A stretch of DNA of 60,505 nt from a virus: the IMG/VR virus record IMGVR_UViG_3300002026_000030. One strand, 5' to 3'. The notes below the pieces were generated by a model. The model was not told the origin of the DNA, searched no databases, and was given only the letters and a program-made list of their open reading frames with translations. Below are positions 27,691-43,758 of the stretch, in pieces (the first letter of the stretch is position 1; every line of letters begins with the position of its first letter). A program made the translations under genes and the position numbers.

Positions 27691-27705
27691 TTAACTCGTG
27701 ATTAA
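27691..27705. promoter_or_regulatory. TTAA-N7-TTAA palindromic box (CtrA-box format)
   Basis: TTAACTCGTGATTAA; abuts stop of 27706..28122, 29 nt upstream of ATG 27661. Confidence 0.5.
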
Positions 27706-28122
27706 TTACTTGACACGATAGTGGTACAGCCCGCCCTCGCGGATCTCGATGGCCAGTTTACGCTTCGCCACCATGTTCTGGAGGTGCCGACGGATGGTGC
27801 TGTCGGACAAGCCCGTCGCTGCGATGAGTTGCTTCGCGGTGTGCCACTTCTTCTGGCAGAGTTCGGCGATCATGAACGCGCCACGGCCACGCCCGCTGAC
27901 GAACGCGGGGGTGTTCGCTGCACCGCGTGCGGTGTAGGTCATGCGGCCTTCGCGGATCGCGCCGCGGCGCACTACGTCCTTACGGAGCCAGCGGCCCACC
28001 AGCACGCGAGCGTAGTCGGGGTCAACGCCGGTCATCTCCACGATCTCGTTGATCGACAGGCTGCGGGAGCGCATGGCGTCGTACGTCATTTTGGCGAGGC
28101 TGCGAAAGTCATTCTTTTTCAT
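27706..28122 (-). CDS. winged-helix DNA-binding protein (tandem wHTH, MarR/ArsR-like)
   Basis: 138 aa; SINEIVEMTGVDPDYARVLV.. and HTAKQLIAATGLSDSTIRRHLQNMVAKRKL.. helix-turn-helix segments; AGGGA upstream. Confidence 0.55.
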   Translation of the reverse strand: MKKNDFRSLAKMTYDAMRSRSLSINEIVEMTGVDPDYARVLVGRWLRKDVVRRGAIREGRMTYTARGAANTPAFVSGRGRGAFMIAELCQKKWHTAKQLIAATGLSDSTIRRHLQNMVAKRKLAIEIREGGLYHYRVK

Positions 28123-28161
28123 GGTAGTTCCCTAATGAGTGTTTGGGGGTGCAACGTTGTA

Positions 28162-28437
28162 TCACGATTGGATCATGGTGGCAAGGGAAGACTGGGGGTC
28201 TTCCTCGGCTTCCTCGGCGGGTTCATCGTACGGCCACGGCCTGCAGAAGTACCGCAGTTCGCCGTCGTGGAAACGCTCGTACTTGTTGCACTGGGCGACG
28301 ATGTGGTTGTGCGCGACGTTACGGCCGACCACCAGCGAGATCCAAATGGCGACAACTAAGATGATGGCGAACTTGATCAGCGTCGGAAACGTCGGCGGTT
28401 CGGGGTCAGTCCGAATGTGTGGAGGCATCATGAGCAT
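28162..28437 (-). CDS. small membrane protein
   Basis: ORF 28162..28491; internal ATG 28437/28431/28428 preferred; TM segment LIKFAIILVVAIWISLVV, acidic C-terminus. Confidence 0.4.
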   Translation of the reverse strand: MLMMPPHIRTDPEPPTFPTLIKFAIILVVAIWISLVVGRNVAHNHIVAQCNKYERFHDGELRYFCRPWPYDEPAEEAEEDPQSSLATMIQS

Positions 28438-28756
28438 TGTCCAGTAGGGTTGAGGGGCATCCGGTCTTTCGCAGTGCGAACAACACGGCACGATTGATCT
28501 CGATGTAACGCGCCATGACCTGCCACGCCGGCATCATGATGGCGGGGGTCACCGCGGGAGCGAGCTTGATCTGCAGGCTTCCGTCATACGACGTCTGCGC
28601 GTCTAACTTACGTGCGCCGAACTGCTCCCACCCGTTGGGCAAGATCGGCATGGGGGTGTCGGGGTGAATACCCAGTTGCTCACACGCGATGCGGGCAGCA
28701 GTCTCATAGTTAACTACTTGCCCGGGCACAAACGCGGTTTGAGGTAGAACGATCAT
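28406..28756 (-). CDS. hypothetical protein
   Basis: ORF 28406..28930; ATG 28756 forms an ATGA overlap with upstream stop and follows GAAGGGA; upstream part of track ORF is Arg/His-rich junk. Confidence 0.55.
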   Translation of the reverse strand: MIVLPQTAFVPGQVVNYETAARIACEQLGIHPDTPMPILPNGWEQFGARKLDAQTSYDGSLQIKLAPAVTPAIMMPAWQVMARYIEINRAVLFALRKTGCPSTLLDNAHDASTHSD

Positions 28757-29046
28757 GGTACGTATCCCTTCGTGTAAGTAAACGCTAAGACAAATGGGCA
28801 GATGGCTTTCATGCGTACGCCGTGATGCACCTCGATGCTCCGGTCCTGCATGCCCAGCCGTGCGGGGGTGACGACGATGTAGGCTTCGCGTAGCGTCACG
28901 CGCCCCACTCGCGTCGAGAGCACTTCCCATACAAGGATCTGCCCCTGCTGCGCCTCGGCGGTAGGTTCCACCCAGAGTTGGCCGACCTCGACACCCAACT
29001 GCGCGGGGTCGAACTCGGCGGTGGTTAGTGCGTCGGCGGTACTCAT
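28753..29046 (-). CDS. hypothetical protein
   Basis: 97-aa ORF, ATGA overlaps at both ends. Confidence 0.55.
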   Translation of the reverse strand: MSTADALTTAEFDPAQLGVEVGQLWVEPTAEAQQGQILVWEVLSTRVGRVTLREAYIVVTPARLGMQDRSIEVHHGVRMKAICPFVLAFTYTKGYVP

Positions 29047-29357
29047 AACGGTCCTACGTAGTGGAGGAGGATGTGTTGCACGGTGCCTTTCGACAGGCCG
29101 GTTTCTTTCATGATTGTGGGGTAACGCTTCCCCTTGGTTCGGAGTCGCATCACCTCATCCCACTGCGCGTGCGTGTGCTTGGCACGGTGGTGGTCGGGGC
29201 CACGCTTGCGTAGCGACACGCCCATCTTTCTGGCGGCGTGGATAACGCCGTGTACGCTGCGCCCCGGCAACAGTGCGGAGATCTGCTTGCTGGTCATCGT
29301 GCGTGCGCTCTTGCGGACTAACGACTTCTCTGCCCGGGTCCACGGATTACCCCTCAT
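29043..29357 (-). CDS. GcrA-like / Myb-type HTH DNA-binding protein
   Basis: N-terminus WTRAEKSLV..MTSKQISALLPGRSVHGVIHAARKMGVS parallels the GcrA N-terminal pattern WT.E....L...LSASQIA..LG.V.RNAVIGK.HRLGLS; second HTH YPTIMKETGLSKGTVQHIL. Confidence 0.5.
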   Translation of the reverse strand: MRGNPWTRAEKSLVRKSARTMTSKQISALLPGRSVHGVIHAARKMGVSLRKRGPDHHRAKHTHAQWDEVMRLRTKGKRYPTIMKETGLSKGTVQHILLHYVGPL

Positions 29358-29622
29358 TGGCGTACCTCACGGCACGACGGTCAGTTTGGGTGTACACCAG
29401 CAGGAGCACTTCGGGCGATAGCGTCATCTCTAGTGGGCCACCGAATGGACAAACGTTGTCATACGTTTGCGGGCTCCGAACAGTCTCATTCGCAACAAGG
29501 ACCACAGCCTCACCTGAGACCGACCGTACGAACCACTCTTTGCGCCGACGTTTTTCTGCGTCGTGCGCGTGGAACCAGATACTACCTAGTGGGATTAGTT
29601 GTTTAGCGTCGATGCTGAACAT
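29347..29622 (-). CDS. hypothetical protein
   Basis: ORF 29347..29796; only the part from ATG 29622 (or 29634) has protein-like composition and avoids long overlap with 29603..29878. Confidence 0.45.
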   Translation of the reverse strand: MFSIDAKQLIPLGSIWFHAHDAEKRRRKEWFVRSVSGEAVVLVANETVRSPQTYDNVCPFGGPLEMTLSPEVLLLVYTQTDRRAVRYANEG

Positions 29623-29878
29623 GGGAGTCACCATTCTTTGTGCCCGCCAACTTGATCTCGGCGATGCTGCGGCGGTGGATGTACCCCGCGTTCTCGAACT
29701 CGATGTGCTTACCGAGCACGCCCTTAACGACATCAGTGCGGGGGAAGATGTACCCACGGCCAGACTTGTCGATCCCACCGTGCAGCAGGTAGTCAACTTC
29801 TTTACCGATGAGCTTCTGCGCTTCGACTTTTGTACCGAATGGGAGCGCCTCGCCTGTCATGTACTGGCACTCACTCAT
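29603..29878 (-). CDS. hypothetical protein
   Basis: 91-aa ORF, ATGA overlap with upstream stop. Confidence 0.55.
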   Translation of the reverse strand: MSECQYMTGEALPFGTKVEAQKLIGKEVDYLLHGGIDKSGRGYIFPRTDVVKGVLGKHIEFENAGYIHRRSIAEIKLAGTKNGDSHVQHRR

Positions 29879-30066
29879 GGGGATTCCCTCCGCTTTAACT
29901 CGTGGCCATCAGGGAGTGCGGCTTGCCACTCCATGAACTGCGCGCGCTGCGGGCACCAACTCATGTGGGGGTCCATGGGTGGACGCCCGTTGAATGTGTA
30001 CGCGTAGCCGCCGCAGGTGCAGCGGTGATCGAACGTCTTTAACTCCAAGGCTTCCCCGGGGGTCAT
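29875..30066 (-). CDS. hypothetical Cys/His-containing small protein
   Basis: ATG 30066 forms ATGA overlap with upstream stop; HRCTCGG...WCPQ. Confidence 0.45.
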   Translation of the reverse strand: MTPGEALELKTFDHRCTCGGYAYTFNGRPPMDPHMSWCPQRAQFMEWQAALPDGHELKRRESP

Positions 30067-30272
30067 GGCAGATGCCTCCACAGCGCGAGCAACACGAGGA
30101 CGAACGCGACGAGGACGAACGCCATCCCGATACACAGCCCCCATATCACGACTGCGCGGTACGTCGGGTCACGGACGACGCGGATCTTCCCTTCGGGGGT
30201 TCCATTCGCGCCGCGGATAATAACGATCAACGCCGTACCAATTACGAGGAAAAACACTGCTAATGCGATCAT
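30063..30272 (-). CDS. small two-TM membrane protein
   Basis: 69 aa; MIALAVFFLVIGTALIVII and VVIWGLCIGMAFVLVAFVLVLLAL hydrophobic spans; ATGA overlaps at both ends. Confidence 0.6.
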   Translation of the reverse strand: MIALAVFFLVIGTALIVIIRGANGTPEGKIRVVRDPTYRAVVIWGLCIGMAFVLVAFVLVLLALWRHLP

Positions 30273-30505
30273 GACTTTTGCTCCGGTGGTGGTGGTGGTG
30301 TAGGCATCCAGTGGGTAGGTGGCCTGCTGCGACTTACGGTGACTTGCTGGAGGGCGTCAGTCCGGTTCCAAAAAGGTCGTGGCCTTTTGGAGTAAGCGTC
30401 TTCATCCCACCTAGCGCAACTCACAACGCCGTTCCATGTTGGTGGATAGACGGTGATGTACGTTCCGTCCTTCGGCGCGGTCTCTATCGGCTGCCAGTCA
30501 TTCAT
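30269..30505 (-). CDS. DUF551-like small protein
   Basis: N-terminal W.PIETAPKDG motif common in small phage proteins of this type. Confidence 0.45.
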   Translation of the reverse strand: MNDWQPIETAPKDGTYITVYPPTWNGVVSCARWDEDAYSKRPRPFWNRTDALQQVTVSRSRPPTHWMPTPPPPPEQKS

Positions 30506-31337
30506 TACCCACCCCCGCTGCGGCTAGTGCTTTGCGGATGCGCTCTTGCGTCAGCCTCGTCGCCTCTCCGGTGTACGCCTCAAGTCCGGCCAGAGCCTCC
30601 CGCAACGCCTCCACCAACTGCGCCTGCCGTTTCTCAAGCTCGCGGACTCGCGTGTAAACGTCGCCTTTTGGATTTTCTTGGGGAACGTCCGCGCTGGCCT
30701 GCGGCTGCGGGGCTTCGTGAGGCGCTCTCAATTCAACCTCTACGCCGCCGTCTCTCCAGCTTTTCGCGTAGAGCTGAGCCTGAGATTCATTGGCAAAGGT
30801 AGACCAGCCCGACCACCTGCCGTCTGAGAGTCTGTTTCGCAATTGCCAAGCCACCGGCTCGGCCTGCGGCTGCGGCTGCGGGGCGTCGATGTTGTCCGGC
30901 CACGACACATCACGGCCGTACGCGGTGCCGTCCCATGTGCCCATGTACTTCGGTAGTGACTCGATGCGCGGCAGGTCCTTCGGACCCATGTGCCATGACA
31001 CCTGACCAACGCCCGGGACATCCACGTACACGACGTTGCGCCACTCCGGGTCCCAGTCTTTCTCTGGGGTGTCGTCGTACCCACGGCCAGCGCTGCCACC
31101 ATGGAGCAGCGTGACTTTCGCCAACGCTACGGCGAGCGCGTTGCGCTGCGAGTACACATCGTCCAGCGATTGCTGCAGCGCTGCGGTCTTGAGTTCGAGC
31201 GTGTTGACCTTCCCTTCGATGGTGTCGAGGTCGTACGTCGCTTCGCCGATCATGGTGTCGCGGATCTCCGCCAGCTGCGCCATGTTGAGCCAGCCGCGGG
31301 TCATACATTTCTCGATGAGGCCAAGTGTTGCTTGCAT
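30498..31337 (-). CDS. hypothetical protein with N-terminal coiled coil
   Basis: 279 aa; AGGAGA upstream of ATG 31337. Confidence 0.6.
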   Translation of the reverse strand: MQATLGLIEKCMTRGWLNMAQLAEIRDTMIGEATYDLDTIEGKVNTLELKTAALQQSLDDVYSQRNALAVALAKVTLLHGGSAGRGYDDTPEKDWDPEWRNVVYVDVPGVGQVSWHMGPKDLPRIESLPKYMGTWDGTAYGRDVSWPDNIDAPQPQPQAEPVAWQLRNRLSDGRWSGWSTFANESQAQLYAKSWRDGGVEVELRAPHEAPQPQASADVPQENPKGDVYTRVRELEKRQAQLVEALREALAGLEAYTGEATRLTQERIRKALAAAGVGNE

Positions 31338-31355
31338 GTCGAATCTCCTAAGTGG

Positions 31356-32372
31356 TTAGAGCACCGCGCCCCAGTCCATCGCGACAGGGTGTGCCTCTCG
31401 CCAGAACGCGGTGATGTTGCGAACCTTGCGGATGTACGAGCCTTGCGAGTGCGCCGTGATCATCTGGATCAGCGGCACCGCCGGGAGGTCGCGCGACACG
31501 TAGACCATGCGCTGGTCGTCGATGTTGGCCGGACTCACCACCTCGTCGGGGTCCAACGCTGCGCGTAGCCCACGCTGGAACTGCTGACACCACGGCTGCG
31601 TGCCGAACATCAGGTGGTTGACTAGCCGCGCCCACCCTTCGTCACCAACACCGGGGAGCGCAACGATCGCGTCCGTGATCTTCGTGCGGCCAGCGATCTG
31701 CAGCATGGGTAACGTCTGGGGTAGCGACTGGTCACACTGCACCGCCGTGTACGCCAGCCGCATCAGCCATGCGACGTGCAGTGGATCGACACCCAACACG
31801 AGCGCGGAGCCACCGTGCACCGCTACGGCGTCGGTGCGGAGGATCATGCCGAACTCCTCCGCGAGGGTGCACCCGACGGGAACTTCGGGGAACTTGTTTG
31901 ACGATAGATCCTCGTCGTCGCCGACCGGCTTGGTCTCGATACTGCACACGTACTGCTCGTCGTAATGCTGGACGATAGGGAACGGTCGGAACAGCGGCGG
32001 TGTCTTCATGGGGTGCGGGGGTGCCTTGTAGGTGAATTGGTCACGAGCGATGTTCGGCGAGCCGCGCCACATGCGTGACGCAAACTGCGCTTGCATGGCA
32101 GCGCCGGACGCTGCGCTACTCGCGCCTTGCATGCCGGAGATCGAGCCCAGAATGTGGGCGTTCATGCTGTCGACCATGCCCTGATACACCGACCCGGACA
32201 TGGCTTTCTGTCGGTCGTACGTGGCCTGCGCATACCTCATAGCATCCAGCGTGTCCTGACTGGTGACGTCGCGGATGGTGATGCCGCTGGACAACTTCAT
32301 CGTCCCATCGGGCGCCGGGGGGTCCGGCGCCTTAGCACGAATGAACTTGACGAACTTGGCAGTGAAACTCAT
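31356..32372 (-). CDS. hypothetical protein (last gene of the MoxR-VWA-DUF3150 transcription unit)
   Basis: ORF 31356..32489; ATG 32372 lies 5 nt after the upstream TAA with GGGGAG upstream. Confidence 0.6.
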   Translation of the reverse strand: MSFTAKFVKFIRAKAPDPPAPDGTMKLSSGITIRDVTSQDTLDAMRYAQATYDRQKAMSGSVYQGMVDSMNAHILGSISGMQGASSAASGAAMQAQFASRMWRGSPNIARDQFTYKAPPHPMKTPPLFRPFPIVQHYDEQYVCSIETKPVGDDEDLSSNKFPEVPVGCTLAEEFGMILRTDAVAVHGGSALVLGVDPLHVAWLMRLAYTAVQCDQSLPQTLPMLQIAGRTKITDAIVALPGVGDEGWARLVNHLMFGTQPWCQQFQRGLRAALDPDEVVSPANIDDQRMVYVSRDLPAVPLIQMITAHSQGSYIRKVRNITAFWREAHPVAMDWGAVL

Positions 32373-32377
32373 GGCGA

Positions 32378-33256
32378 TTACTCCCCAAGCAGACCGAGCA
32401 TGTCGTTGACCAGCGTCTGTGCCTTGTCGGCCACTTCGCTGCGGGCGGTGTCCATGGTGCGCAACGTCGTCGGGCTGTAGAGGCAGCACTCGGCCAGCAC
32501 GCGCTGACGGATCGCTTCCAACTCAGCGTGGCCGAACACGTTGAGCGGACCCAACGCCTCGGCCGTAGCCCGTACGTTGTCCACGGTGGTGTCGCGGAAG
32601 ATCGGGAACTTGCCGTCATCGCCGCGGCGCAACTTCTCGGCCAGATGCTTGACGTCCGTCAGCAAGCGCTCGATGGCCGTACGCAATGCGTTCTCCACCA
32701 GTTCACGTGCGCGGCTCTCGCCCGCTGCTTCAAGTGCAGCCACCTGCTCATCGGTGAGACCGTAGCGCACGTCGTCGGTGAAGCCCGCCGGCAGGGGCGA
32801 GAACGTCACGCGGAAGCTGAACCGCGGACGCACCTGATCGGTCGGGGGGTAGTCGGACGTATCGGCCAGATCACCGAGCGAGGCGAGCGCCTGCTGGCGC
32901 AGGATCGGATACTCCTCGACGAACGCATCGACCGCCGTGTTGAACTCGGCGCGGAACTCCGCGATCTTCGCCATGACAGCGAACGCCTTGGTGTTAGGGA
33001 GCAGGCGGTTACCCGCGTCGTCCCACGGCAGGGTCTCGGCGTCGAGGTAACGGCGAACGTTGGTGTCAATGCGGCGGATAGCCGTCAGCAACGTGTCGGC
33101 ACCGGCGAGCAGGCGCTTGTTGACGCGAGCGCTGTCGGCGATGGCACCGGCGTCGCCAGTGACCTTGGTGCTCGCCTTGCGGTCGAGCTTCATACCCGAC
33201 CACGACGAGATGGAGACGTACGCCAGCATGGCGCGTTGTGCGATGTTAGTGCTCAT
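32378..33256 (-). CDS. DUF3150-like protein
   Basis: 292 aa; N-terminus LAYVSISSWSGMKLDRKAST..ARVNKRLL...TLPWDDAGNRLLP recalls DUF3150 proteins, which co-occur with MoxR/VWA pairs; from memory, needs HMM confirmation. Confidence 0.5.
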   Translation of the reverse strand: MSTNIAQRAMLAYVSISSWSGMKLDRKASTKVTGDAGAIADSARVNKRLLAGADTLLTAIRRIDTNVRRYLDAETLPWDDAGNRLLPNTKAFAVMAKIAEFRAEFNTAVDAFVEEYPILRQQALASLGDLADTSDYPPTDQVRPRFSFRVTFSPLPAGFTDDVRYGLTDEQVAALEAAGESRARELVENALRTAIERLLTDVKHLAEKLRRGDDGKFPIFRDTTVDNVRATAEALGPLNVFGHAELEAIRQRVLAECCLYSPTTLRTMDTARSEVADKAQTLVNDMLGLLGE

Positions 33257-33259
33257 GAA

Positions 33260-33274
33260 TTAACCCCTGATTAA
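33260..33274. promoter_or_regulatory. TTAA-N7-TTAA box enclosing the Shine-Dalgarno of 32378..33256
   Basis: minus-sense TTAATCAGGGGTTAA then TTC-ATG; first TTAA contains the VWA gene stop. Confidence 0.5.
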
Positions 33275-35560: not shown

Positions 35561-35575
35561 TTAAACAGTGATTAA
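35561..35575. promoter_or_regulatory. TTAA-N7-TTAA box in the leader of the MoxR operon
   Basis: TTAAACAGTGATTAA, 20 nt upstream of ATG 35540, about 40 nt downstream of the promoter at 35621-35649. Confidence 0.5.
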
Positions 35576-35620
35576 GTCGGTGATCAGTGGGAGGCGATGG
35601 CCGCACTCCCACTGTATAAC

Positions 35621-35649
35621 ATTGTACTACATTTGACGGGGTTTGTCAA
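35621..35649 (-). promoter_or_regulatory. sigma70-type promoter (TTGACA-17-TACAAT)
   Basis: minus strand: TTGACA (35649-35644), 17-nt spacer, TACAAT (35626-35621); in the gap between 35653..35877 and the MoxR gene. Confidence 0.75.
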
Positions 35650-35652
35650 GTG

Positions 35653-36934: not shown

Positions 36935-36948
36935 TTAATCATGATTAA
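36935..36948. promoter_or_regulatory. TTAA-N6-TTAA variant box (14-bp perfect palindrome TTAATCATGATTAA)
   Basis: overlaps last codons and stop of 36935..38170, 14 nt upstream of ATG 36920. Confidence 0.4.
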
Positions 36949-38170: not shown

Positions 38171-38174
38171 GAAT

Positions 38175-38189
38175 TTAACTCCTGATTAA
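38175..38189. promoter_or_regulatory. TTAA-N7-TTAA box enclosing the Shine-Dalgarno of 36935..38170
   Basis: minus-sense TTAATCAGGAGTTAA then ATTC-ATG. Confidence 0.5.
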
Positions 38190-38392
38190 TTGATGGTCAC
38201 CAACATCACACTACAACTTTCGTCCACGTTAGGATCATTGAAGCACACGGGACAATACAGGTCAACCGCGATCGTTGGTTGGGGGGTTGCAGTAACCCCG
38301 CAGTCCTGACACAGGACGGCCCGCCGTTTCCAGCACAGCGTCGAGCGTTTGGATGAGGACTTTGCGCTTTTGGTCTCTGGCGGCGTTGTCAC
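38186..38392 (-). CDS. possible zinc-ribbon segment (CxxC...CxxC), likely the frameshifted C-terminus of 38262..38549 rather than an independent gene
   Basis: LCQDCGV...LYCPVCF in the +1 frame relative to 38262..38549; the only in-frame start is GTG 38392, giving a 131-nt overlap. Confidence 0.3.
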   Translation of the reverse strand: MTTPPETKSAKSSSKRSTLCWKRRAVLCQDCGVTATPQPTIAVDLYCPVCFNDPNVDESCSVMLVTIN

Positions 38393-38549
38393 GTGGGTGC
38401 CCCGTGTGGTTGTAGGGTCGCGAGGTCACGATCTCCCACCGGCATGCCTCGATCAAGTCGAGGATGGTCTGGTCTTTCTTTTCGTACAGCGCCAAGATCT
38501 CCTTGACGTTGGTCGCGAGTGCGAGCAGGCGCGGGTCTACATCGGCCAT
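38262..38549 (-). CDS. hypothetical protein
   Basis: 95-aa ORF starting ATG 38549; helical-looking sequence until about aa 80, then an unnatural tail. Confidence 0.5.
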   Translation of the reverse strand: MADVDPRLLALATNVKEILALYEKKDQTILDLIEACRWEIVTSRPYNHTGHPRDNAARDQKRKVLIQTLDAVLETAGRPVSGLRGYCNPPTNDRG

Positions 38550-38698
38550 GACCAGCCCCTCCCCGGTTCGACAGCGAACACTGCCCAGAGCAGCATCACC
38601 ATGAGCAGCACAAACACCGCATAGGCCAGCACTTGTAGTGCCGCGAGCGCCATGCGGATGAGGGTGTACACGAATACGATCGTCTGGGGGTCACGCAT
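38537..38698 (-). CDS. small (53 aa) two-TM membrane protein
   Basis: MRDPQTIVFVYTLIRMALAALQVLAYAVFVLLMVMLLWAVFAV...; ATG 38698 overlaps upstream stop by 8 nt; below the 60-aa track cutoff from this start. Confidence 0.5.
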   Translation of the reverse strand: MRDPQTIVFVYTLIRMALAALQVLAYAVFVLLMVMLLWAVFAVEPGRGWSWPM

Positions 38699-39296
38699 AT
38701 TGAAACTCCTCATCGTGCGTAGCTCGTGCTTCGAGCCAGTCCACTGGGGTGTCGTACGCCGGCATGGGCCACGCGATGCCCGATGGGTGCACGTACACGC
38801 GGTGTGGGTCGATGGGCATGTTCCCACAATACTGGGTGCCCTTGCTCTGGTAGAACGACATGCCCGTGAGCGCACTCAGGCGGTTGCGGGTTGTGCTGGT
38901 GTCGAACCCGCCCATGCACGTCGCCCATCCAAGGGCGCCACCATGCTGCGCGGCGATGACTGTCGAGTGCAGGATGTACGCGGCGCCGACGTAGCGTGGC
39001 GAACATAACCAGTAGCCATCACCGTGCTCGGGCCGCACGACACGACATACGAACAGGCACCGCACGTGGTCGTTCTTCGTGCTCGGCACGGTGCCGTACG
39101 AATCGACCAGCGCGCGGTCCCGGCCGAGCGGCGTCATCACCCTGTAGCCGAGCCGCCCATGCGGCTGCGCCGCGGTACGACGGAGCATCTCGCGAGTGAA
39201 TGGGTACTCGTGTTCCAGCACCTGCAGCCCATGGGCGACCTGCCGTGCGACTTGCCTGTGGATGTAGCCGACGATGTTCTTGCTGTTGGCTCTCAT
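38691..39296 (-). CDS. hypothetical protein
   Basis: 201-aa ORF; GAGGA within the preceding box. Confidence 0.6.
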   Translation of the reverse strand: MRANSKNIVGYIHRQVARQVAHGLQVLEHEYPFTREMLRRTAAQPHGRLGYRVMTPLGRDRALVDSYGTVPSTKNDHVRCLFVCRVVRPEHGDGYWLCSPRYVGAAYILHSTVIAAQHGGALGWATCMGGFDTSTTRNRLSALTGMSFYQSKGTQYCGNMPIDPHRVYVHPSGIAWPMPAYDTPVDWLEARATHDEEFQYA

Positions 39297-39299
39297 GAA

Positions 39300-39314
39300 T
39301 TAATCCTCGATTAA
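39300..39314. promoter_or_regulatory. TTAA-N7-TTAA box enclosing the Shine-Dalgarno of 38691..39296
   Basis: minus-sense TTAATCGAGGATTAA then TTC-ATG; overlaps last codons and stop of 39300..39716. Confidence 0.5.
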
Positions 39315-39716
39315 TTGGATGGGGTGGTACTGGACGATCTTGCATGCCCACTGTGCAGCGTGGACGTTCTCGCCGTTCATCTTGCCGTACGGCTTCATGT
39401 CGATGACTGCCGCACACTCCAGCATGAGGTGGTCGCTGAGTGACTGCACGGCGGGGTGGCCCTTATCGCAGAGGATGTCCTCGGCGAGTCTCACGAACTG
39501 AGCGGTCACCACGAACTCGGCGATGGTCGCGTTGCCCGTGATGCCTAGCTTGTCGCAGATCAGGGGGCCTTGCCCGATCATGGTGGCCCAGTCTCCCTTG
39601 GCGAGCAGCCCGCGGTAGATCGGCACCACCATGAGCGCAAACGCACTGGGGTCTTTTGGTTGTGGTCGCATGGTGGTTATCCGAAGGTTAGGACGAGTCG
39701 GTGGTGAGCGCCCCAT
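39300..39716 (-). CDS. hypothetical protein
   Basis: 138-aa ORF; ATG 39716 is 3 nt after upstream stop; alternative ATG 39671. Confidence 0.5.
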   Translation of the reverse strand: MGRSPPTRPNLRITTMRPQPKDPSAFALMVVPIYRGLLAKGDWATMIGQGPLICDKLGITGNATIAEFVVTAQFVRLAEDILCDKGHPAVQSLSDHLMLECAAVIDMKPYGKMNGENVHAAQWACKIVQYHPIQLIED

Positions 39717-39719
39717 AGG

Positions 39720-40049
39720 TCACACCACCTGCGACACTTGCATGTAGTGCGCTTGCAGGTCGCTCGCCGCATCGAGGATGAGGTCGATCTGCTCGTTGAG
39801 TGATTGTCGGCGCGTGTCTACCTCGTTGTAGTAGAACGCGTGCTTTAGTACGCCCTTGCGGCGCACGTTGAGAAAGCCGTAGCTCACCTCGATGGTGTGG
39901 TTCTGCAGGTTGAACTGCTTGAGGTGCTTACGCATAAGCGTGAGGATGCGCTCATCGTTGCGCTCATTCGCCTTGTCCAGTGCGTCATCGCGCGCCTTGA
40001 TGATGGCGGTGAGCTTCGCCTCCGACACGTGGTTAAAGATTCTTCTCAT
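39720..40049 (-). CDS. hypothetical protein
   Basis: 109-aa ORF with balanced composition. Confidence 0.55.
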   Translation of the reverse strand: MRRIFNHVSEAKLTAIIKARDDALDKANERNDERILTLMRKHLKQFNLQNHTIEVSYGFLNVRRKGVLKHAFYYNEVDTRRQSLNEQIDLILDAASDLQAHYMQVSQVV

Positions 40050-40323
40050 GGTTAAACGCCTTCAATACTGATTCGAGAATGGATCGGGCCTCGCGCATGT
40101 ACTCCGCCTCGCAGCCGGGGGAGTTCATCGCTCGGTACACTCGGGTAGCGAACCACGTGCCGGGGAAGTTAAGGCCGTAAATCTCTTTCGTTGCGTTCAC
40201 GACCGTGCGCAGCGCTATCTGGTAGTCCCACATGCCGCACGCCACCATGGATGGCACCAGCTTCTCGTCGCCAGTGCGTATCCATGCCGTGAGCAGCGCG
40301 TGGAACAAGAGGTCGTGGCTCAT
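40033..40323 (-). CDS. hypothetical protein
   Basis: 96-aa ORF. Confidence 0.55.
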   Translation of the reverse strand: MSHDLLFHALLTAWIRTGDEKLVPSMVACGMWDYQIALRTVVNATKEIYGLNFPGTWFATRVYRAMNSPGCEAEYMREARSILESVLKAFNHEKNL

Positions 40324-40448
40324 GACCCGATCCTCATGTAGTACCTCCAGCCCCGCCGGTACTGCCGGAAACAGCGGGGGTTAGCGAACCCACCAGCGGC
40401 GTACCACTGGCGTTTAGCGAGTCTCGCGGCACCGAGCGTGGCGTACAT
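40320..40448 (-). CDS. small basic/aromatic protein (42 aa), not in ORF track
   Basis: my translation MYATLGAARLAKRQWYAAGGFANPRCFRQYRRGWRYYMRIGS; ATG 2 nt after upstream TGA, own TGA overlaps next ATG (ATGA). Confidence 0.4.
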   Translation of the reverse strand: MYATLGAARLAKRQWYAAGGFANPRCFRQYRRGWRYYMRIGS

Positions 40449-40450
40449 AC

Positions 40451-40612
40451 TCAGTCCCCCTCGTCTTCGTTGGCGATCTTGTTCGACACCCACTCCCAGT
40501 AGCCAAGGCGGGTGTCGTTGTTGGCGGCTTCGTACTGCCAGTCCGCGACGGGGTACACGGGGTGCTCGCCCCAGTGGCCGTACTCATCTTCGAGTTCGAG
40601 TGCAGTAGTCAT
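40451..40612 (-). CDS. small acidic protein (53 aa)
   Basis: MTTALELEDEYGHWGEHPVYPVADWQYEAANNDTRLGYWEWV...; ATG 40612 overlaps upstream stop (TGATG); rest of track ORF 40451..40756 is Arg-rich junk. Confidence 0.5.
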   Translation of the reverse strand: MTTALELEDEYGHWGEHPVYPVADWQYEAANNDTRLGYWEWVSNKIANEDEGD

Positions 40613-41154
40613 CAGAGTTCTGCCTCGCCACGGGCACGCGACGCGAGCCACTCCACCGACGCGTTGTAGATCGACGAGTGCGGGTAAGCCTCCATCAGCC
40701 CGAGCACAGCGGTGACGGGGTCGTTGCCCAGCACCTTGGCGCGGTTCACGTGCCACAGTACGACGCCCACGCCGGTCAGCGTCTGCCCCGGTGCGGCGTT
40801 GATCAGCAGGGTGTCGGTCGTCAGGCGTGCAGTGCGTAACTGCTCAAGCTCGGCGCGCAGAAGATCGCCTCGACCAGTGGTGTCCTCGCTCACCTCTGGG
40901 GCTTGGTCGGGTGTCGGGGTCTCGCTCACCTCTCGGGCGTCGTCGATGTCTCCGATCACGATAGCCTGCGCGTTGAAGTACACGTTGATGTACTCGGTGG
41001 GGTGCAGGGGTGCGACTGCGTGGATGTGGACCATGTCGGGGAGCAGCATGCGGAGACGGGCGACGGCCGCTTTACGGTTCAACGCCACGATGTTGGCAGA
41101 GCAACCGATGCCACCGTCGGTGCTGTTCCCGATGTTGAAGTGATAAGCGTACAT
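40612..41154 (-). CDS. hypothetical protein
   Basis: 180-aa ORF, AAGGAAA upstream of ATG 41154. Confidence 0.6.
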   Translation of the reverse strand: MYAYHFNIGNSTDGGIGCSANIVALNRKAAVARLRMLLPDMVHIHAVAPLHPTEYINVYFNAQAIVIGDIDDAREVSETPTPDQAPEVSEDTTGRGDLLRAELEQLRTARLTTDTLLINAAPGQTLTGVGVVLWHVNRAKVLGNDPVTAVLGLMEAYPHSSIYNASVEWLASRARGEAEL

Positions 41155-41166
41155 GTGGATTTCCTT

Positions 41167-41181
41167 TTAGTTGATGATTAA
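41167..41181. promoter_or_regulatory. TTAA-N7-TTAA-type box, one half degenerate (TTAG)
   Basis: plus TTAGTTGATGATTAA; 12 nt upstream of ATG 41154, directly 5' of its SD. Confidence 0.4.
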
Positions 41182-41489
41182 TTGCCGTACGGCATGCAGC
41201 CGATGAGGTACTTGTGCCCGTCGTACGTGTGCAGGGCGGGCGTGCCTGCGCCATCGCCCATCAGGGCGAGGATCGCATCGAGGTCGCTGTCGCCGCCGTC
41301 CGTGGTGCCGGTGTACTCGATCCAGCCCTCGTCGTTGACGGTCACGCGCAGGACCACCACGTGCATGGTGACGGAGCCAATCTGGATGGCACCAACGGCG
41401 TAGCCCTCCTCGGACAGGGCCTTGAGGTCGAACCCGCCTAGCGCGTGGAGGAACGGCACGCTGGGGGTTTTGGGGGTGCGCTTGCTCAT
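41178..41489 (-). CDS. hypothetical protein
   Basis: 103-aa ORF, ATGA overlap with upstream small ORF. Confidence 0.55.
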   Translation of the reverse strand: MSKRTPKTPSVPFLHALGGFDLKALSEEGYAVGAIQIGSVTMHVVVLRVTVNDEGWIEYTGTTDGGDSDLDAILALMGDGAGTPALHTYDGHKYLIGCMPYGN

Positions 41490-41647
41490 GGCACGGACTC
41501 GAGCAGTGTGTCGAGGCGGATGGCACCGCCACGCAGGCCAAGCTCACGCTCAGCCCGACGGATGGCGCGGTGCGCGCCTGCAGTGCCACCCCATAGGAGC
41601 GCAAGCAGCGCACGGTGGACGAGGTTGTCAAACGCGGAAGCAGTCAT
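41486..41647 (-). CDS. first gene of the leftward operon, small protein (53 aa), not in ORF track
   Basis: my translation MTASAFDNLVHRALLALLWGGTAGAHRAIRRAERELGLRGGAIRLDTLLESVP; AAGGA 9 nt upstream; TGA overlaps next ATG. Confidence 0.45.
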   Translation of the reverse strand: MTASAFDNLVHRALLALLWGGTAGAHRAIRRAERELGLRGGAIRLDTLLESVP

Positions 41648-41662
41648 GACGGTGATCCTTTA

Positions 41663-41677
41663 TTAATTGGTGATTAA
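41663..41677. promoter_or_regulatory. TTAA-N7-TTAA box in the leader of the main leftward operon
   Basis: TTAATTGGTGATTAA, 15 nt upstream of ATG 41647, about 90 nt downstream of promoter 41775-41803. Confidence 0.5.
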
Positions 41678-41774
41678 ATGGCGGTATCGCGACAATTCAA
41701 CCGATGAGGGGTGCAGCGCGTCGCTAGGTGCAGCACCCGTGAGCAGCGGACGCATTTGTCCCTGTCACAAGAGC

Positions 41775-41803
41775 AGTATACCAGAAATAGATCGAGTTGT
41801 CAA
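41775..41803 (-). promoter_or_regulatory. sigma70-type promoter (TTGACA-17-TATACT), main leftward early promoter
   Basis: minus strand: TTGACA (41803-41798), 17-nt spacer, TATACT (41780-41775). Confidence 0.75.
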
Positions 41804-42060
41804 GGCGTAGTCGAACGTCATTTTATTAAACAAAACATAACACTTGTCCGATTCAAAATACAACGTTAGAAAGTGACATCTCAGTTGTTACGTGCCAACG
41901 GCGCGGGTTGTAGCGGGTCTAAGTGCGGCACGGTCACGGCATGGGTCGAATATGTCACATTTCACATTAGGCGGATGTTATGCGCTGACAGGGCCGCAGG
42001 CAAGGCGTTTTAGCGATCTAGGGCAAGTTATTAAATGGAGAGAGGGTTCGGGGGTTCGGT

Positions 42061-42075
42061 TTAATCGCTGATTAA
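42061..42075. promoter_or_regulatory. TTAA-N7-TTAA box, near-perfect 7-1-7 palindrome
   Basis: TTAATCGCTGATTAA inside the non-coding region. Confidence 0.5.
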
Positions 42076-42270
42076 GTCGTGTGGGATTTTTGTGTAGACG
42101 GTTTCATGCCGATGTTATGCGCTGCCCGCTGCCCGAGGTAAAAAACGAGAGCCCCCCATGGGGTGAGGGGGTTTCATCTCAAAACATATCTGCTAGCTTG
42201 TTCCGCCCCTCGCGTGAGGCTCTTGTTTGGCGTAGTCATGGATGTTACATCGGGCACTGCCCAATATGGG

Positions 42271-42310
42271 GTTATTATTAATTACTAGATAAGAATAAGT
42301 AATAATAATA
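42271..42310. other. extreme AT-rich tract (possible DNA-unwinding element)
   Basis: gttattattaattactagataagaataagtaataataata: 5 G/C in 40 nt within a GC-rich genome; internal AATAAG and AATAATAATA repeats. Confidence 0.5.
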
Positions 42311-42545
42311 CCCCCAATTCGGGCTTTCCCTGCATACGCTGCCGCTATTAGCGGCACCCCCAAACGCTAAAACCGTCAAACCTCTGCCCGATTGAACGGG
42401 CAGCGTATACCAAGTTACTACGATTGCCACACCCCAAAACCCCCTATTTATTGGGCGTGCCGTGGCCTCACCCCACTTAGCTCCCCGCAAACCGGCCTTG
42501 CCTGCATGGGGTGAGTTACCATACCGCAGTACCATGATCCATAAA

Positions 42546-42560
42546 TTAATTGGCGTTTAA
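42546..42560. promoter_or_regulatory. TTAA-N7-TTAA box
   Basis: TTAATTGGCGTTTAA inside the non-coding region. Confidence 0.45.
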
Positions 42561-42707
42561 ATCGTATACGGCGACGCCATCCAGTAGCCATTAGCCGATC
42601 CTATGAGGAAAAACCCCTCAACCGTGTGAAGGGTTTTCACATCAGGATGTTTCCCCCCAGCTTGTTACGTGGCGGGAAGTCCGCCGGATGTCACGAGCCC
42701 TAGACGC

Positions 42708-42737
42708 AAAAAACCCCGCCACCTTTCGGCAGCGGGG
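42708..42737 (-). terminator. rho-independent terminator of the Ala/Lys-rich gene
   Basis: minus strand CCCCGCUGCC-GAAA-GGUGGCGGGG (10-bp stem incl. two G.U pairs, GNRA loop) followed by U6; 22 nt after the stop. Confidence 0.85.
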
Positions 42738-42759
42738 TCGCGGGGTCTCGCCTTGCGAC

Positions 42760-43617
42760 TTATTCGCCCTTGCCAACGCTGGCTGCGCTGGTGGCCTCGT
42801 CAATCGCGCCGACCATGTTGCGCGTCATGGTCTCAACGTTAGCCAGCGCTCCGGCAATCGCGCCCCGGAGGATGGGGTCCGCGGCGCAACGCGTGGCCAG
42901 AGCCGCCAGCTGGTGGGCGACATCCTGCGCAATCTTGCGCGCATTGGTGCGCTCCGCTTGGGTCGCGGCCTTGGGCGCGGTGCTGGTGGGGCCTGCCTTT
43001 TCGGCCTTCGCTTTCATCGCGTCCGCCTTTGCAGTGTCCGCCGCGGCCTTCGCGACCTTGGCAGCCTCCGCCTTGGCCAGCGCCGCGGCAATAGCAGCAT
43101 CAGCCTCCGCCGTGGCCTTCGCGGCCTTCGCCTTATCCGCGGCCTTCGCGCCTTGCACGGCCGCGACGAACTGGGCGCTTTCGGCCTTCGCTGCCGCGGC
43201 CTTCGCCGTGAGCATGGCGGCCTTGGAAGCCTCCGCCGCGGCCTTCGCCGCCTCACGTGCTGCAGCATCCGCGCCAACGGGGGCACCCTTCGCAGACTTA
43301 AGTCCGGCGGCCTTGTACGCGCTATCAACCGCGTCCTGCACCTGCCGCGCCGACGTAAGGCCGGTCAAGTCGGGGAGCGGCTTCTTTGCTTTCGCCAGCT
43401 TGAAGGCTTGCGCCAGCTTCGAGGAATAAACCCCCCACGCGCTTTCCTTCAATTCGGCGCCGCCTTCCTTCCATACGGCGCCCACGTCTGCAGGGGTGGG
43501 CTCCCAACCTGCGAAAGCGGCCTTGAACAAGGCAACCCACGCGATGGCCGTGGCCGTGGAAAGGGTGCGCACTGCTTCAACGGCCAGAACGCGGGGGGCT
43601 TTTTTGGTGGTGGTCAT
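42760..43617 (-). CDS. Ala/Lys-rich low-complexity protein (histone H1/AlgP-like composition), stand-alone early gene
   Basis: ATG 43617 (GAAGGA 9-10 nt upstream) preferred over ATG 43626; about 120 aa of AKAAA-type repeats between globular ends. Confidence 0.65.
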   Translation of the reverse strand: MTTTKKAPRVLAVEAVRTLSTATAIAWVALFKAAFAGWEPTPADVGAVWKEGGAELKESAWGVYSSKLAQAFKLAKAKKPLPDLTGLTSARQVQDAVDSAYKAAGLKSAKGAPVGADAAAREAAKAAAEASKAAMLTAKAAAAKAESAQFVAAVQGAKAADKAKAAKATAEADAAIAAALAKAEAAKVAKAAADTAKADAMKAKAEKAGPTSTAPKAATQAERTNARKIAQDVAHQLAALATRCAADPILRGAIAGALANVETMTRNMVGAIDEATSAASVGKGE

Positions 43618-43638
43618 GGCATTCATCCTTCTAAGGAA

Positions 43639-43653
43639 TTAATCACTGACTAA
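43639..43653. promoter_or_regulatory. TTAA-N7-CTAA box in the leader of the Ala/Lys-rich gene
   Basis: TTAATCACTGACTAA; 21 nt upstream of ATG 43617; near-identical to the box at 43744. Confidence 0.45.
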
Positions 43654-43689
43654 GTCAGAGGCGGCAGGCAAGACGCCCGACGCAGTGCA

Positions 43690-43718
43690 AGTATCGCACA
43701 AGCTGGTGGAAATGTCAA
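43690..43718 (-). promoter_or_regulatory. sigma70-type promoter (TTGACA-17-GATACT)
   Basis: minus strand: TTGACA (43718-43713), 17-nt spacer, GATACT (43695-43690). Confidence 0.65.
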
Positions 43719-43743
43719 GGTTTAACCCCACAACGTGGTGGAT

Positions 43744-43758
43744 TTAATCACCGACTAA
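43744..43758. promoter_or_regulatory. TTAA-N7-CTAA box upstream of promoter 43690-43718
   Basis: TTAATCACCGACTAA, 25 nt upstream of the -35 hexamer. Confidence 0.45.

Follow-up and report, generated by a model that had tools for sequence, protein, structure and literature searches.

Palindromic boxes of an uncultured podophage as candidate operators of a phage-encoded early regulator

The window, the whole stretch of 60,505 nucleotides analysed here, is a complete ~60 kb genome of an uncultured podophage, and a TTAA-N7-TTAA box recurs along its leftward early operon. Relatives carry the same box, or a different palindrome of their own, in orthologous positions. We see about an even chance that these boxes are dispersed, stoperator-like operators, read in each lineage by its own phage-encoded DNA-binding regulator.

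Boxes and promoters of the leftward early region

Compared with dinucleotide shuffles of the window, in which 0.05 perfect TTAA-N7-TTAA boxes are expected and no shuffle holds more than one, the window holds eight. When one core mismatch is allowed, 13 boxes are found against 1.7 expected, all of them inside 27691-43758; these include three verified one-mismatch boxes (41167, 43639 and 43744) and two further degenerate ones (41826-41840 and 42278-42292). The enrichment also holds against the AT-richer intergenic background of the region (6 observed, 0.04 expected), and the spacing is strictly N7, the sole other spacing among TTAA pairs at 0-14 nt being one N6. Along transcription the motif reads A-TTAATCA-S-Y-G-A-TTAA-T-T, an imperfect palindrome of ~19 bp with a weaker downstream half and with half-sites of the form A/T-TTAA-T. 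Eight of the window boxes are oriented forward, one is ambiguous, and the two at the first promoter are reversed.

A sequence-only reading of this DNA had listed eight perfect boxes and three with one degenerate half, confined to 16 kb. All of them are found where it had placed them, and clustering by chance is not borne out. Two of its points had to be revised. First, the longer half-site TGATTAA, ascribed to nearly all boxes, stands on one side of the box only. Second, an N6 variant at 36935-36948 had been counted as a member. This site encodes I-N-H-D-stop of the 411-aa protein, recurs only in a relative whose protein has the same C-terminus, and is missing from this junction in two further relatives that carry boxes; it is probably a coding coincidence rather than a box.

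The boxes lie in the leaders of three near-consensus sigma-70-type promoters (P1, P2 and P3), upstream of P1, behind terminators, and where genes of the early operon meet:

43744..43758, minus strand: box upstream of P1, about -75..-61; TTAGTCGGTGATTAA on the minus strand, TTAATCACCGACTAA on the plus strand; near ideal palindrome
43690..43718, minus strand: early promoter P1, TTGACA-17-GATACT with extended -10 TG; drives the first early gene (43617-42760)
43639..43653, minus strand: box in the P1 leader, about +31..+45; start codon 21 nt on
42546..42560, minus strand: box past terminator 42739-42712, where genes are sparse; a conserved 8-codon mini-ORF comes next
42061..42075, minus strand: box ~77 nt downstream of a second terminator (42170-42152)
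41826..41840, minus strand: degenerate box TTATGTTTTGTTTAA, 22 nt upstream of the P2 -35; membership uncertain
41775..41803, minus strand: promoter P2, TTGACA-17-TATACT
41663..41677, minus strand: box in the P2 leader, about +92..+106; ATG (41647) 15 nt on
41167..41181, minus strand: junction box TTAATCATCAACTAA; stop codon of the upstream gene within the first half-site
39300..39314, minus strand: junction box TTAATCGAGGATTAA; Shine-Dalgarno in the spacer, ATG 3 nt downstream
38175..38189, minus strand: junction box TTAATCAGGAGTTAA preceding the 411-aa gene; Shine-Dalgarno in the spacer
35621..35649, minus strand: promoter P3, TTGACA-17-TACAAT; a conserved hairpin (35611-35582) comes next in the leader
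35561..35575, minus strand: box in the P3 leader, about +40..+54; precedes an AAA ATPase gene
33260..33274, minus strand: junction box between a DUF2201 gene and a 292-aa (DUF3150-like) gene; includes stop codon and Shine-Dalgarno
27706..28122, minus strand: predicted 138-aa winged-helix protein; its gene closes the box-bearing block
27691..27705, minus strand: last box, directly past the stop codon of the winged-helix gene

As proposed in the earlier reading, boxes bracket P1, each leader of the other two promoters has one, and three boxes hold a Shine-Dalgarno sequence (GGAG, GGGG or GAGGA) in the spacer with the ATG 3-4 nt on. Its count of 9 of 12 boxes within 30 nt of a start codon becomes 8 of 11, but this closeness is little informative, as intergenic DNA makes up only 7% of the genome.

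Conserved slots and changing palindromes in relatives

The boxes are present at orthologous junctions of related phages whose neighbouring proteins are just 42-56% identical, while spacer and flanks vary. Judged by sequence comparison, such recurrence in diverged relatives is a phylogenetic footprint, which argues that the boxes are functional. For example, the centres of the two P1 boxes are 105 bp apart, and the spacing is identical in the relative L004 (boxes 5682 and 5787). Box 42546 has orthologues in L004 (7107) and L066 (2435), as has box 41663 (7991 and 3306, respectively); box 42061 recurs as an identical 15-mer at L004 7591, and the degenerate box 41826 is conserved at L004 7828. The L066 orthologue of box 38175 is TTAATCAGTTCTTAA, with its Shine-Dalgarno outside the box. 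The slot of box 33260 is filled in L004, L066, L061, L063 (TTAAACTTATTTTAA) and L064 (GTTACCGGCCGGTAAC), and a box follows the orthologous winged-helix gene in L004 (17662) and L061 (10255) and was not found there in L066.

Other relatives carry different recurrent palindromes of ~17 bp in the same slots:

L064: GTTACCG-N2-CGGTAAC, 6 copies
L062: GTAATTCC-C-GGAATTAC
L013: GTTATGCC-N-GGCATAAC
L019: AGTTACCG-N3-CGGTAACT
L010, L063 and L067: TTAAAAC-N-GTTTTAA
Rhizobium phage RHph_TM3_14A: GTTACC-N5/6-GGTAAC, 18 copies

Position relative to the promoter is kept, as the P3 leader slot holds GTTACCGGACGGTAAC at about +44..+59 of the equivalent L064 promoter, against +40..+54 in the window; in L062 this slot holds GTAATTCCCGGAATTAC. 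In RHph_TM3_14A, one copy begins 2 nt past the stop of a DUF2201-type metallopeptidase gene. A conserved G-run/C-run element precedes the slot orthologous to the box upstream of P1; in L004 this slot is filled by TTAATCGGTGATTAA, and in both L067 and L010 by TTAAAACGGTTTTAA. Across lineages this box is altered symmetrically (T5/A11 to A5/T11, and C6/G10 to A6/T10), and in several lineages the dyad symmetry reaches a 1-2 nt centre, which is of no use to a hairpin. Symmetric change and such a dyad therefore point to symmetric protein contact on duplex DNA. The inner bases of the palindromes are constant inside one genome and different across lineages, a pattern that would be expected of a co-evolving pair of reader and site. 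Box type does not strictly follow phage phylogeny, since L061 is near the window by its proteins, yet has TTAAAC-type boxes resembling those of the distant L063 and L010. Many of the RHph_TM3_14A copies are intragenic, and these fit a simple model of roadblocks at junctions less well.

Proposed regulation and candidate reader

From these comparisons we infer that a protein binds the boxes. A regulator encoded by the phage would use them as double-stranded DNA operators, and the roughly eleven copies would stand around or just past the three early promoters of host type, behind terminators and in tiny intergenic gaps. Once accumulated, it would fill the sites and block initiation at P1, and when bound it would also block elongation along the early operon. 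Early expression would thereby be shut down or timed, as by mycobacteriophage repressors at stoperators. The sequence-only reading had named host CtrA as its lead and a phage reader of the longer palindrome as an alternative; we favour the phage reader over CtrA. No integrase or lysogeny module was found among the proteins scanned, and why an apparently lytic phage would have a silencing network is a matter of conjecture.

The likeliest reader in the TTAATCA-type clade appears to be the 138-aa winged-helix protein. It matches Pfam HTH_5 at 26.9 bits (cut-off 22) and MarR_2 at 26.5 bits, and the only relatives with an orthologue, L004, L066 and L061, all bear boxes. The model of its C-terminal domain is a winged helix (pLDDT 75-82), with superpositions of 1.1-1.7 A on NolR, SmtB and SqrR. 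In a low-confidence single-sequence model (mean pLDDT 59), the protein may have two DNA-reading units in one chain, and two such putative units would suit a site made of two unequal halves at a fixed distance. The family was undetectable in L063 and L067, which have TTAAAAC-type boxes, and the L010 search covered ~21 kb, possibly too little to include the corresponding gene. Positional counterparts in L062, L063 and L064 showed no homology to the protein (hhalign, probability <1%), and one conserved reader family for the whole phage family was not found among the box-bearing lineages compared. L061 belongs to the winged-helix clade yet has TTAAAC-type boxes, and the putative recognition helices show no obvious co-variation with box type. 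Of the two HTH candidates suggested earlier, 27706-28122 gains from its conservation in the TTAATCA-type clade; the 104-aa protein at 29043-29357 is excluded as a conserved reader, being present in the window only and absent from box-bearing relatives.

Operators of ~17 bp with dyad symmetry, whose inner bases vary between phages and whose early-promoter position is kept, are known from lambdoid immunity groups, and the window family shares these features. However, the lambdoid operators occupy two promoter regions, whereas the candidate operators of the window are sprinkled along the operon at junctions and after terminators, and no cI/Cro-type pair or lysogeny genes were identified in the window.

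The stoperators of Cluster A mycobacteriophages (L5 gp71, TipsytheTRex repressor) are another close system. A repressor monomer with two DNA-binding domains reads an asymmetric site, and stoperators lie at promoters and short intergenic spaces with their orientation linked to transcription (PMC9283540). By analogy, this precedent shows that such a design works. In both systems one short, specific site is repeated many times, at the early promoter as well as in the very short gaps between genes of an operon; its halves are unequal, its orientation is tied to transcription direction, and its sequence varies between related phage lineages. The candidate reader is likewise small and, going by its model, may carry two DNA-reading units. 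In contrast to Cluster A, the window is a Gram-negative podophage, unrelated in host clade and phage type, and the candidate reader has no match at E<=10 in the PDB, which should include that repressor (PMC9283540). The window site is an imperfect palindrome of 15-19 bp (perfect in sister lineages) rather than a 13-bp fully asymmetric stoperator, and ~11 sites in the early operon only compare with >20 stoperators genome-wide. No lysogeny module was seen, and the elongation block is proposed for the window by analogy.

Host factors and RNA as alternatives

Some host DNA-binding protein other than CtrA, for instance a nucleoid protein or a global regulator, is an unlikely reader of the boxes. 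It would explain lineage differences by different hosts, and it agrees with the box type of L061, which departs from protein relationship, and with the finding that no phage protein family tracks boxes in all box-bearing lineages. However, at least six palindromes in the same slots would mean as many host factors recruited to identical positions, and the motif, compared by hand, does not match the consensus sites of IHF, Fur, DnaA and Xanthomonadales LexA.

Host CtrA, possibly with SciP, would couple early expression to the alphaproteobacterial cell cycle, similar to the 'lytic deferment' known for phiCbK-like and other phages, and we consider this improbable. The core and spacing are exactly TTAA-N7-TTAA, the 5' half TTAA[T/C]CA is similar to the CtrA half-site and the SciP motif TTAACCAT (PMC3692519, PMC4083442), and L004 has several TTAACCA boxes. 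Skewed CtrA-site clusters arose repeatedly in phages of Alphaproteobacteria, and those of phiCbK-like phages, vB_BsubS-Delta, MMDA13, Palo and Pasto share with the window the site format, a strongly skewed distribution, and intergenic placement in a GC-rich genome near early or uncharacterised genes (PMC9437464). The closest relatives in culture are Rhizobium phages, and Alphaproteobacteria are the hosts of 25 of the 35 portal relatives. Against this, sister lineages swap the box for non-TTAA palindromes in orthologous slots, including the Rhizobium phage, whose host has CtrA. The flanks also differ: the EMSA-tested cluster of phage Delta has G-TTAA-C in both halves, unlike the A/T-TTAA-T of the boxes; C follows the second TTAA in 4 of 6 Delta sites and in 0 of 31 box sites, position 16 is C or G in none of the 31, and G stands at position 0 in four of them. 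CtrA clusters are packed in one gap or terminal repeat (six boxes in 260 bp in Delta), whereas the window sites are single and dispersed over 16 kb of junctions. The inner bases are lineage-conserved, their changes are symmetric, and the palindromes of L010 and L067 are perfect, a pattern not expected of a tandem-binding OmpR-family regulator. The CtrA clusters belong to phages of Alphaproteobacteria; for the window, two weak host hints are gammaproteobacterial (Xanthomonadales): a Silanimonas MAG contains a contig whose TerL is 88% identical, and the closest endolysins belong to phages of Xylella and Xanthomonas. Xanthomonadales are not known to have CtrA.

An action in mRNA near ribosome-binding sites, as a translational operator, enhancer or processing site (for example a site for a RegA-like repressor or an RNase, or an AU-rich S1 enhancer), had also been suggested and seems to us equally improbable. 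In most cases a start codon follows the box after 3-30 nt, three boxes include the Shine-Dalgarno, and 8 of the 10 orientable boxes follow transcription; the RHph_TM3_14A arms (GTTACCTC and GAGGTAAC) could pair and hide a Shine-Dalgarno, and the local RNA shows no structure beyond that of shuffled sequence, which is expected of open ribosome-binding sites. However, the box at 43758-43744 is upstream of P1 and thus absent from P1 transcripts, both P1 boxes are reversed, no stable hairpin is found at window boxes (z -0.7 to +1.3), and an Rfam search gave no matches. A dyad reaching a 1-2 nt centre, the L066 Shine-Dalgarno outside its box, and a start-codon closeness forced by scarce intergenic space also argue against it. 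A conserved intercistronic cassette, proposed as well, leaves the lineage-specific sequence unexplained, although it describes the placement of the boxes.

Distribution and sequence of the boxes

The TTAA-N7-TTAA boxes at 27691-43758 of the window are clearly non-random. Eight perfect copies were observed, compared with 0.05 expected and a maximum of one in 100 shuffles, which bears out the clustering noticed in the sequence-only reading. When up to one mismatch was allowed in the eight core bases, 13 sites were found against 1.7 expected, all 13 of them within 27691-43758, and against a background restricted to the AT-richer intergenic DNA of the region, six boxes were observed where 0.04 were expected. 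TTAA pairs 0 to 14 nt apart are limited to N7 (eight pairs) and N6 (one pair). The N6 string (36935-36948), once counted as a variant box, was dropped because it is the coding string ATT AAT CAT GAT TAA that ends a 411-aa early protein; it is retained only in the relative with the same 411-aa C-terminus and is missing at that junction in two other related contigs (L066 and L061).

The long palindromic core proposed for the boxes holds in its upstream half, which is strong, but the downstream half mirrors it less strongly, and the element is no simple palindrome. Read along transcription, 31 sites from three genomes give the motif A-TTAATCA-S-Y-G-A-TTAA-T-T, in which C at position 6 pairs with G at position 10 in 20 of the 31 sites and A at -1 has its mirror counterpart in T at +17. 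The orientation bias in the window alone is modest (eight forward, two reverse, one ambiguous) and has a simple reason, since the weaker half often must house the Shine-Dalgarno sequence. Both boxes at the first early promoter (P1) are in reverse orientation.

Gene map of the window, from self-trained gene prediction
1-18237, rightward: structural genes
From 43617 down to 18335, leftward: long early-then-replication block
43953-47221, rightward: lysis block
47222-49116, leftward: terminase
49247-59321, rightward: head genes

Early promoters of the window, near-consensus and of the sigma-70 type
43718-43690, minus strand: P1
41803-41775, minus strand: P2
35649-35621, minus strand: P3

The placement of boxes at promoters was confirmed: the leader of each of the three promoters carries one, and a further box lies about 25 nt upstream of the P1 -35. 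Two others come just after the intrinsic terminators at 42739-42712 and 42170-42152, and the remaining ones occupy gaps of a few nt between adjacent genes, where some include the upstream stop codon, the downstream Shine-Dalgarno sequence, or both. Inter-box distances range from 105 to 5569 bp across 16 kb, and the sites lie at intercistronic junctions for the most part. The closeness of the boxes to start codons was also seen, but it is uninformative as evidence because intergenic DNA makes up only 7% of the genome. No other recurrent palindrome was found at the late-gene junctions of the window.

Fixed positions and lineage-specific sequences in relatives

The window is an uncultured tailed phage, and its genome of 60,505 bp is complete or near-complete. 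It encodes an SU10-type portal, a major head protein, a large terminase, a family A DNA polymerase, an SNF2 helicase, a DUF927 primase/helicase, and an AAA ATPase plus DUF2201 pair. An ENA metagenome contig of 60,398 bp is the same genome, and its proteins bear an NCBI WGS project JFJP01 identifier. No close cultured relative was found among 50,697 cultured phage records, and the box region had no near-identical DNA match in cultured phages; the nearest cultured phages are the Rhizobium phages RHph_TM3_14A, TM27A/B and TM29 (about 61 kb, 35-47% protein identity).

Using homologues of the 411-aa early protein, we obtained two syntenic near-complete contigs, L004 (56% identity) and L006/L066 (42% identity). 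In both, boxes occupy equivalent places: the leaders of all three promoters, the DNA following the first terminator, the position ahead of the 411-aa gene, and the junction of the DUF2201 and 292-aa genes. The box upstream of P1 has a counterpart in L004, and the P1 pair is 105 bp apart, centre to centre, in both the window and L004. The comparison with related phages suggested from the sequence alone thus turned out positive, and since the boxes are conserved at orthologous junctions, we take them to be functional. Their spacer and surrounding sequence differ in the relatives. The Shine-Dalgarno sequence of L066 falls outside the box, and the element is thus more than a ribosome-binding cassette.

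Terminase and DUF2201 homologues opened a large uncultured family of 56-64 kb contigs, for many of which the 10-kb flanks were compared; scanning viral contigs with DUF2201, as one protein or as a three-sequence alignment, confirmed no relatives. In this family, L061 keeps the TTAA-N7-TTAA frame with TTAAAC(C/A) at three orthologous junctions, and L010, L063 and L067 carry TTAAAAC-N-GTTTTAA, in many cases as a perfect palindrome. Relatives that first seemed box-less hold other recurrent palindromes in the equivalent slots.

Recurrent palindromes of these relatives
L064: GTTACCG-N2-CGGTAAC, 6 copies, including the P3-equivalent leader (about +44..+59) and the DUF2201/292-aa junction
L062: GTAATTCC-C-GGAATTAC, 2 copies, one within the P3 leader
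L013: GTTATGCC-N-GGCATAAC, 2 copies
L019: AGTTACCG-N3-CGGTAACT, 2 copies
L012: TTAAATCGTTTTAA, 2 copies, in the slot upstream of P1 and after a terminator
RHph_TM3_14A (L001, MN988472): GTTACC-N5/6-GGTAAC, 18 copies, 3597-45675, at junctions and intragenic

An overlap of the L019 and L013 palindromes with promoters was unsupported by promoter scan. In RHph_TM3_14A, TTAA-N7-TTAA is absent from the 50 kb examined, and the features listed in its record include none of the 18 palindromes. Many of these lie just 5' of start codons with the Shine-Dalgarno sequence in the right arm, and several are intragenic.

All lineage palindromes have a common outline, (G/A)TTA...TAA(C/T), of about 16-19 bp, and their inner bases are constant in each genome and different between lineages. 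For example, in the slot upstream of P1, L004 has TTAATCGGTGATTAA and L067 and L010 have TTAAAACGGTTTTAA; the changes between these orthologous boxes are symmetric (position 5 with 11, position 6 with 10). About 11 specific sites keep their positions, both near the early promoters and beyond them along the early operon, and are lineage-specific in sequence. Because the symmetry in several lineages reaches a centre of 1-2 nt, which could not pair in a hairpin, the dyad is best read as a two-fold protein contact on duplex DNA.

Candidate readers of the boxes and comparison with stoperators

The best-supported explanation is that a phage helix-turn-helix protein reads the longer palindrome, and we give it about even chances; the rival readings below share a smaller part, and the rest is assigned to no explanation. 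Of the two candidates named beforehand, the 138-aa protein (27706-28122) is kept and the 104-aa protein (29043-29357) is excluded as the conserved reader, since it was found in the window alone; its HTH_23 and HTH_7 matches are sub-threshold, a GcrA-like identity was rejected with no Pfam GcrA match at E<=1, and under PHROG 323 it is labelled 'transcriptional regulator, D5-like'. The 138-aa protein matches ArsR/MarR-type winged-helix Pfam models at threshold. Its gene forms the distal end of the box block, with a box right after the stop codon in the window, L004 and L061, and among the loci examined only L004, L066 and L061 have an orthologue. In the alignment, putative recognition helix 1 is nearly invariant and helix 2 is variable, and the protein is suggested to have two helix-turn-helix units. 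In a single-sequence AlphaFold (AF2) model of low confidence, the C-terminal part folds as a winged helix (pLDDT 75-82), which can be superposed on NolR, SmtB and SqrR to 1.1-1.7 A, and the N-terminal three-helix unit is weakly modelled (46-59). A bipartite site whose spacing is fixed and whose halves are unequal would suit a chain with two such different reading heads.

The case for the 138-aa protein is incomplete. No homologue is detectable in L063 and L067, which bear boxes. L061 has another box flavour with no obvious matching change in its orthologue. The positional counterparts in L062, L063 and L064 were rejected as remote homologues (hhalign probability <1%), no protein specific to the TTAAAAC-type genomes was found, and the AK-rich first early protein was rejected as a reader because its family is confined to the window, L004 and L066. 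Neither a CtrA-type response regulator nor a sigma factor or an RNA polymerase was seen among the phage proteins scanned.

Reading by a host factor other than CtrA seems unlikely; the consensuses of IHF, Fur, DnaA and Xanthomonadales LexA, compared by hand, do not fit the boxes.

Binding by host CtrA, i.e., hijacking of its regulon, had been the lead interpretation, and we now regard it as improbable in view of the flanks, the layout, the host clues and the family-wide comparison. The boxes do have the core with its strict spacing (8 perfect and 13 near-perfect sites), the 5' half TTAA[T/C]CA resembles the extended CtrA half-site, and Rhizobium is the host of the nearest cultured relatives, at 35-47% identity. 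The full CtrA site is TTAA-N7-TTAAC, with the half-site TTAACCAT and the SciP motif (G/A)TTAACCAT(A/G) (PMC3692519, PMC4083442), and skewed clusters of CtrA sites evolved in several unrelated alphaproteobacterial phages, as supported by EMSA and reporter evidence (PMC9437464). The top-scoring CtrA site of CcrSC is GTTAACGGCGGATTAAC, and in the validated cluster of phage vB_BsubS-Delta both halves are G-TTAA-C (G before in 5/6, C after in 4/6). In contrast, the boxes depart from this flanking preference, with T or A at position 16 in 31/31 sites (C or G in 0/31) and G at position 0 in 4/31 only. They also stand singly over 16 kb, whereas the vB_BsubS-Delta cluster has six perfect boxes in 260 bp, and they are not concentrated in a promoter gap or terminal repeat.

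The host clues lean the same way. The single match among 185,579 species-representative genomes is L065 (JBOFQO010000314.1), a 3.4-kb contig assigned to a Silanimonas (Xanthomonadales) MAG; its terminase shows 88% identity. The endolysin domain, C-terminal in a 331-aa protein with an N-terminal membrane segment (43953-44948), is nearest to its counterparts in phages of Xylella and Xanthomonas (44% identity, E about 1e-37); a Bradyrhizobium phage follows at 32%. Both hints are weak, and they would tilt away from Alphaproteobacteria; the portal neighbourhood is alphaproteobacterial for the most part, and the tail, structural and early proteins of the window are uninformative as host indicators.

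The strongest argument against CtrA is the family-wide comparison. The core is not kept in L064, L062, L013, L019 and RHph_TM3_14A, which hold GTTACC-, GTAATTCC- or GTTATGCC-type palindromes, and in L064 and L062 these occupy slots identical to those of the window's boxes. Differing sequences at equal slots cannot be explained by one conserved host factor such as CtrA, and this case is especially strong for RHph_TM3_14A, whose Rhizobium host bears CtrA. For genome scans, clustered perfect TTAA-N7-TTAA in a GC-rich phage does not suffice as a sign of CtrA regulation; what discriminates is the bases adjoining TTAA and how the orthologous sites look in relatives.

It is also quite unlikely that the boxes work at the RNA level. 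RNAs of 65 nt, one for each box with the box in the middle, showed no stronger folding than shuffled sequences (z -0.7 to +1.3), and an RNA hairpin or RNase III-type processing site was rejected on this ground. One box lies upstream of P1, beyond any P1 transcript, the P1 pair is reverse-oriented, and nearness to start codons carries no information in a genome so poor in intergenic DNA. An Rfam scan of the control region gave nothing credible (a sub-threshold flavivirus match only), and a single-stranded RNA operator is not favoured.

We infer that the boxes are occupied by a candidate phage-encoded DNA-binding regulator. In this clade, the 138-aa winged-helix protein is its probable identity, and its gene stands at the distal end of the box-bearing operon itself. 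The regulator would repress initiation at P1, where the distance between the flanking sites corresponds to exactly ten helical turns (105 bp at 10.5 bp per turn), and would block elongation from P1, P2 and P3. The outcome would be a delayed negative feedback by which the expression of early and replication genes is shut down or timed.

The closest known system is the operator/stoperator network of Cluster A mycobacteriophages, and the boxes may work like that network without being members of it. In these phages, the sites are asymmetric, 13 bp long and located at promoters and in short gaps between genes. A monomeric repressor with two DNA-binding domains binds them and halts RNA polymerase in an orientation-dependent manner, and its second domain differs among immunity groups (PMC9283540). 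First, as with stoperators, many copies of one specific site are found at early promoters and in short intergenic gaps of the operon. Second, the box halves are unequal in the window and mostly share one orientation, but the boxes are imperfect palindromes, and those of sister lineages are perfect ones. Third, variation of the site between lineages is clear, with no obvious co-variation of the candidate reader. Fourth, the 138-aa alignment suggests a two-domain reader, with the N-terminal unit weakly modelled; no homology to L5 gp71-type repressors was seen, a profile of the four orthologues matched no PDB sequence at E<=10, and Pfam places the protein with ArsR/MarR-type winged helices. Also unlike in the stoperator phages, a lysogeny module is not evident in the window.

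We tentatively suggest that this layout may extend to the whole uncultured ~60 kb proteobacterial podophage family, including the cultured Rhizobium phages. Fixed slots (upstream of or just after early promoters, after terminators, and at particular gene junctions) would hold a ~17-bp dyad that diversifies with a fast-evolving regulator, giving stoperator-like silencing in apparently lytic Gram-negative phages. The most interesting part is that the slots are fixed family-wide while the sequence changes, and this diversification would suggest competition in which each phage silences the early operons of co-infecting kin. If confirmed, stoperator-type dispersed control would reach from temperate actinobacteriophages to abundant uncultured Gram-negative podophages, and the family would offer a natural series of matched site variants at fixed positions, suitable for the study of DNA-binding specificity and target co-evolution. 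The cultured Rhizobium phages render the family pattern testable, and the 18 unannotated palindromes of RHph_TM3_14A can be an experimentally tractable entry.

Other features of the control region and virion genes

The divergent region upstream of P1 (43765-43900) contains G-tracts and then C-tracts (gggggg..tcc..cccccc) adjoining the palindrome AAAAATATTT. This element is also present in L004 (5560-5680), L066 (1100-1230), L067 (18700-18810), L010 (17590-17670) and L012 (about 18990-19017), being kept in lineages divergent elsewhere; a genome end, packaging site or origin may lie here.

The first early gene (42760-43617) encodes a 285-aa protein with a long low-complexity Ala/Lys-rich central region, for which no family match was found and which is conserved only in L004 and L066. 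Between this gene and P2 lies a gene-poor stretch of 1.1 kb (41650-42760) with two intrinsic terminators, strong hairpins (including 42384 and 42340) and the repeated words GCGCATAACATC and CGTAACA. Directly after the box at 42560, an 8-codon mini-ORF reads MDHGTAVW* in the window and MERGTVVW* in L004. An Rfam scan of the stretch gave no match; small RNAs or a leader peptide may be encoded there.

In the P3 leader, a hairpin (35582-35611, cagtgggag..ctcccactg) lies between the promoter and the box. Hairpins of differing sequence stand at the equivalent place in L064 (about 8342-8368, ggagatac..gtatctcc) and L062 (about 8290-8320, ctgtcggtcgg..ccgacag), so the structure is kept and the sequence is not.

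Among the virion genes, the tail-fibre-like ORF 11172-12953 carries about a dozen tandem 63-bp (21-aa) units, GTLAVTEGADTFAATGVSINR, at about 11800-12600, visible both as k-mer recurrence every 63 bp and in the translation. The C-terminal third of a 1491-aa virion-region protein (13762-18237) is similar to giant proteins, DarB-like or PLxRFG, from Bcep22-like podophages, whose hosts are Burkholderia, Klebsiella, Erwinia, Ochrobactrum and Sinorhizobium.
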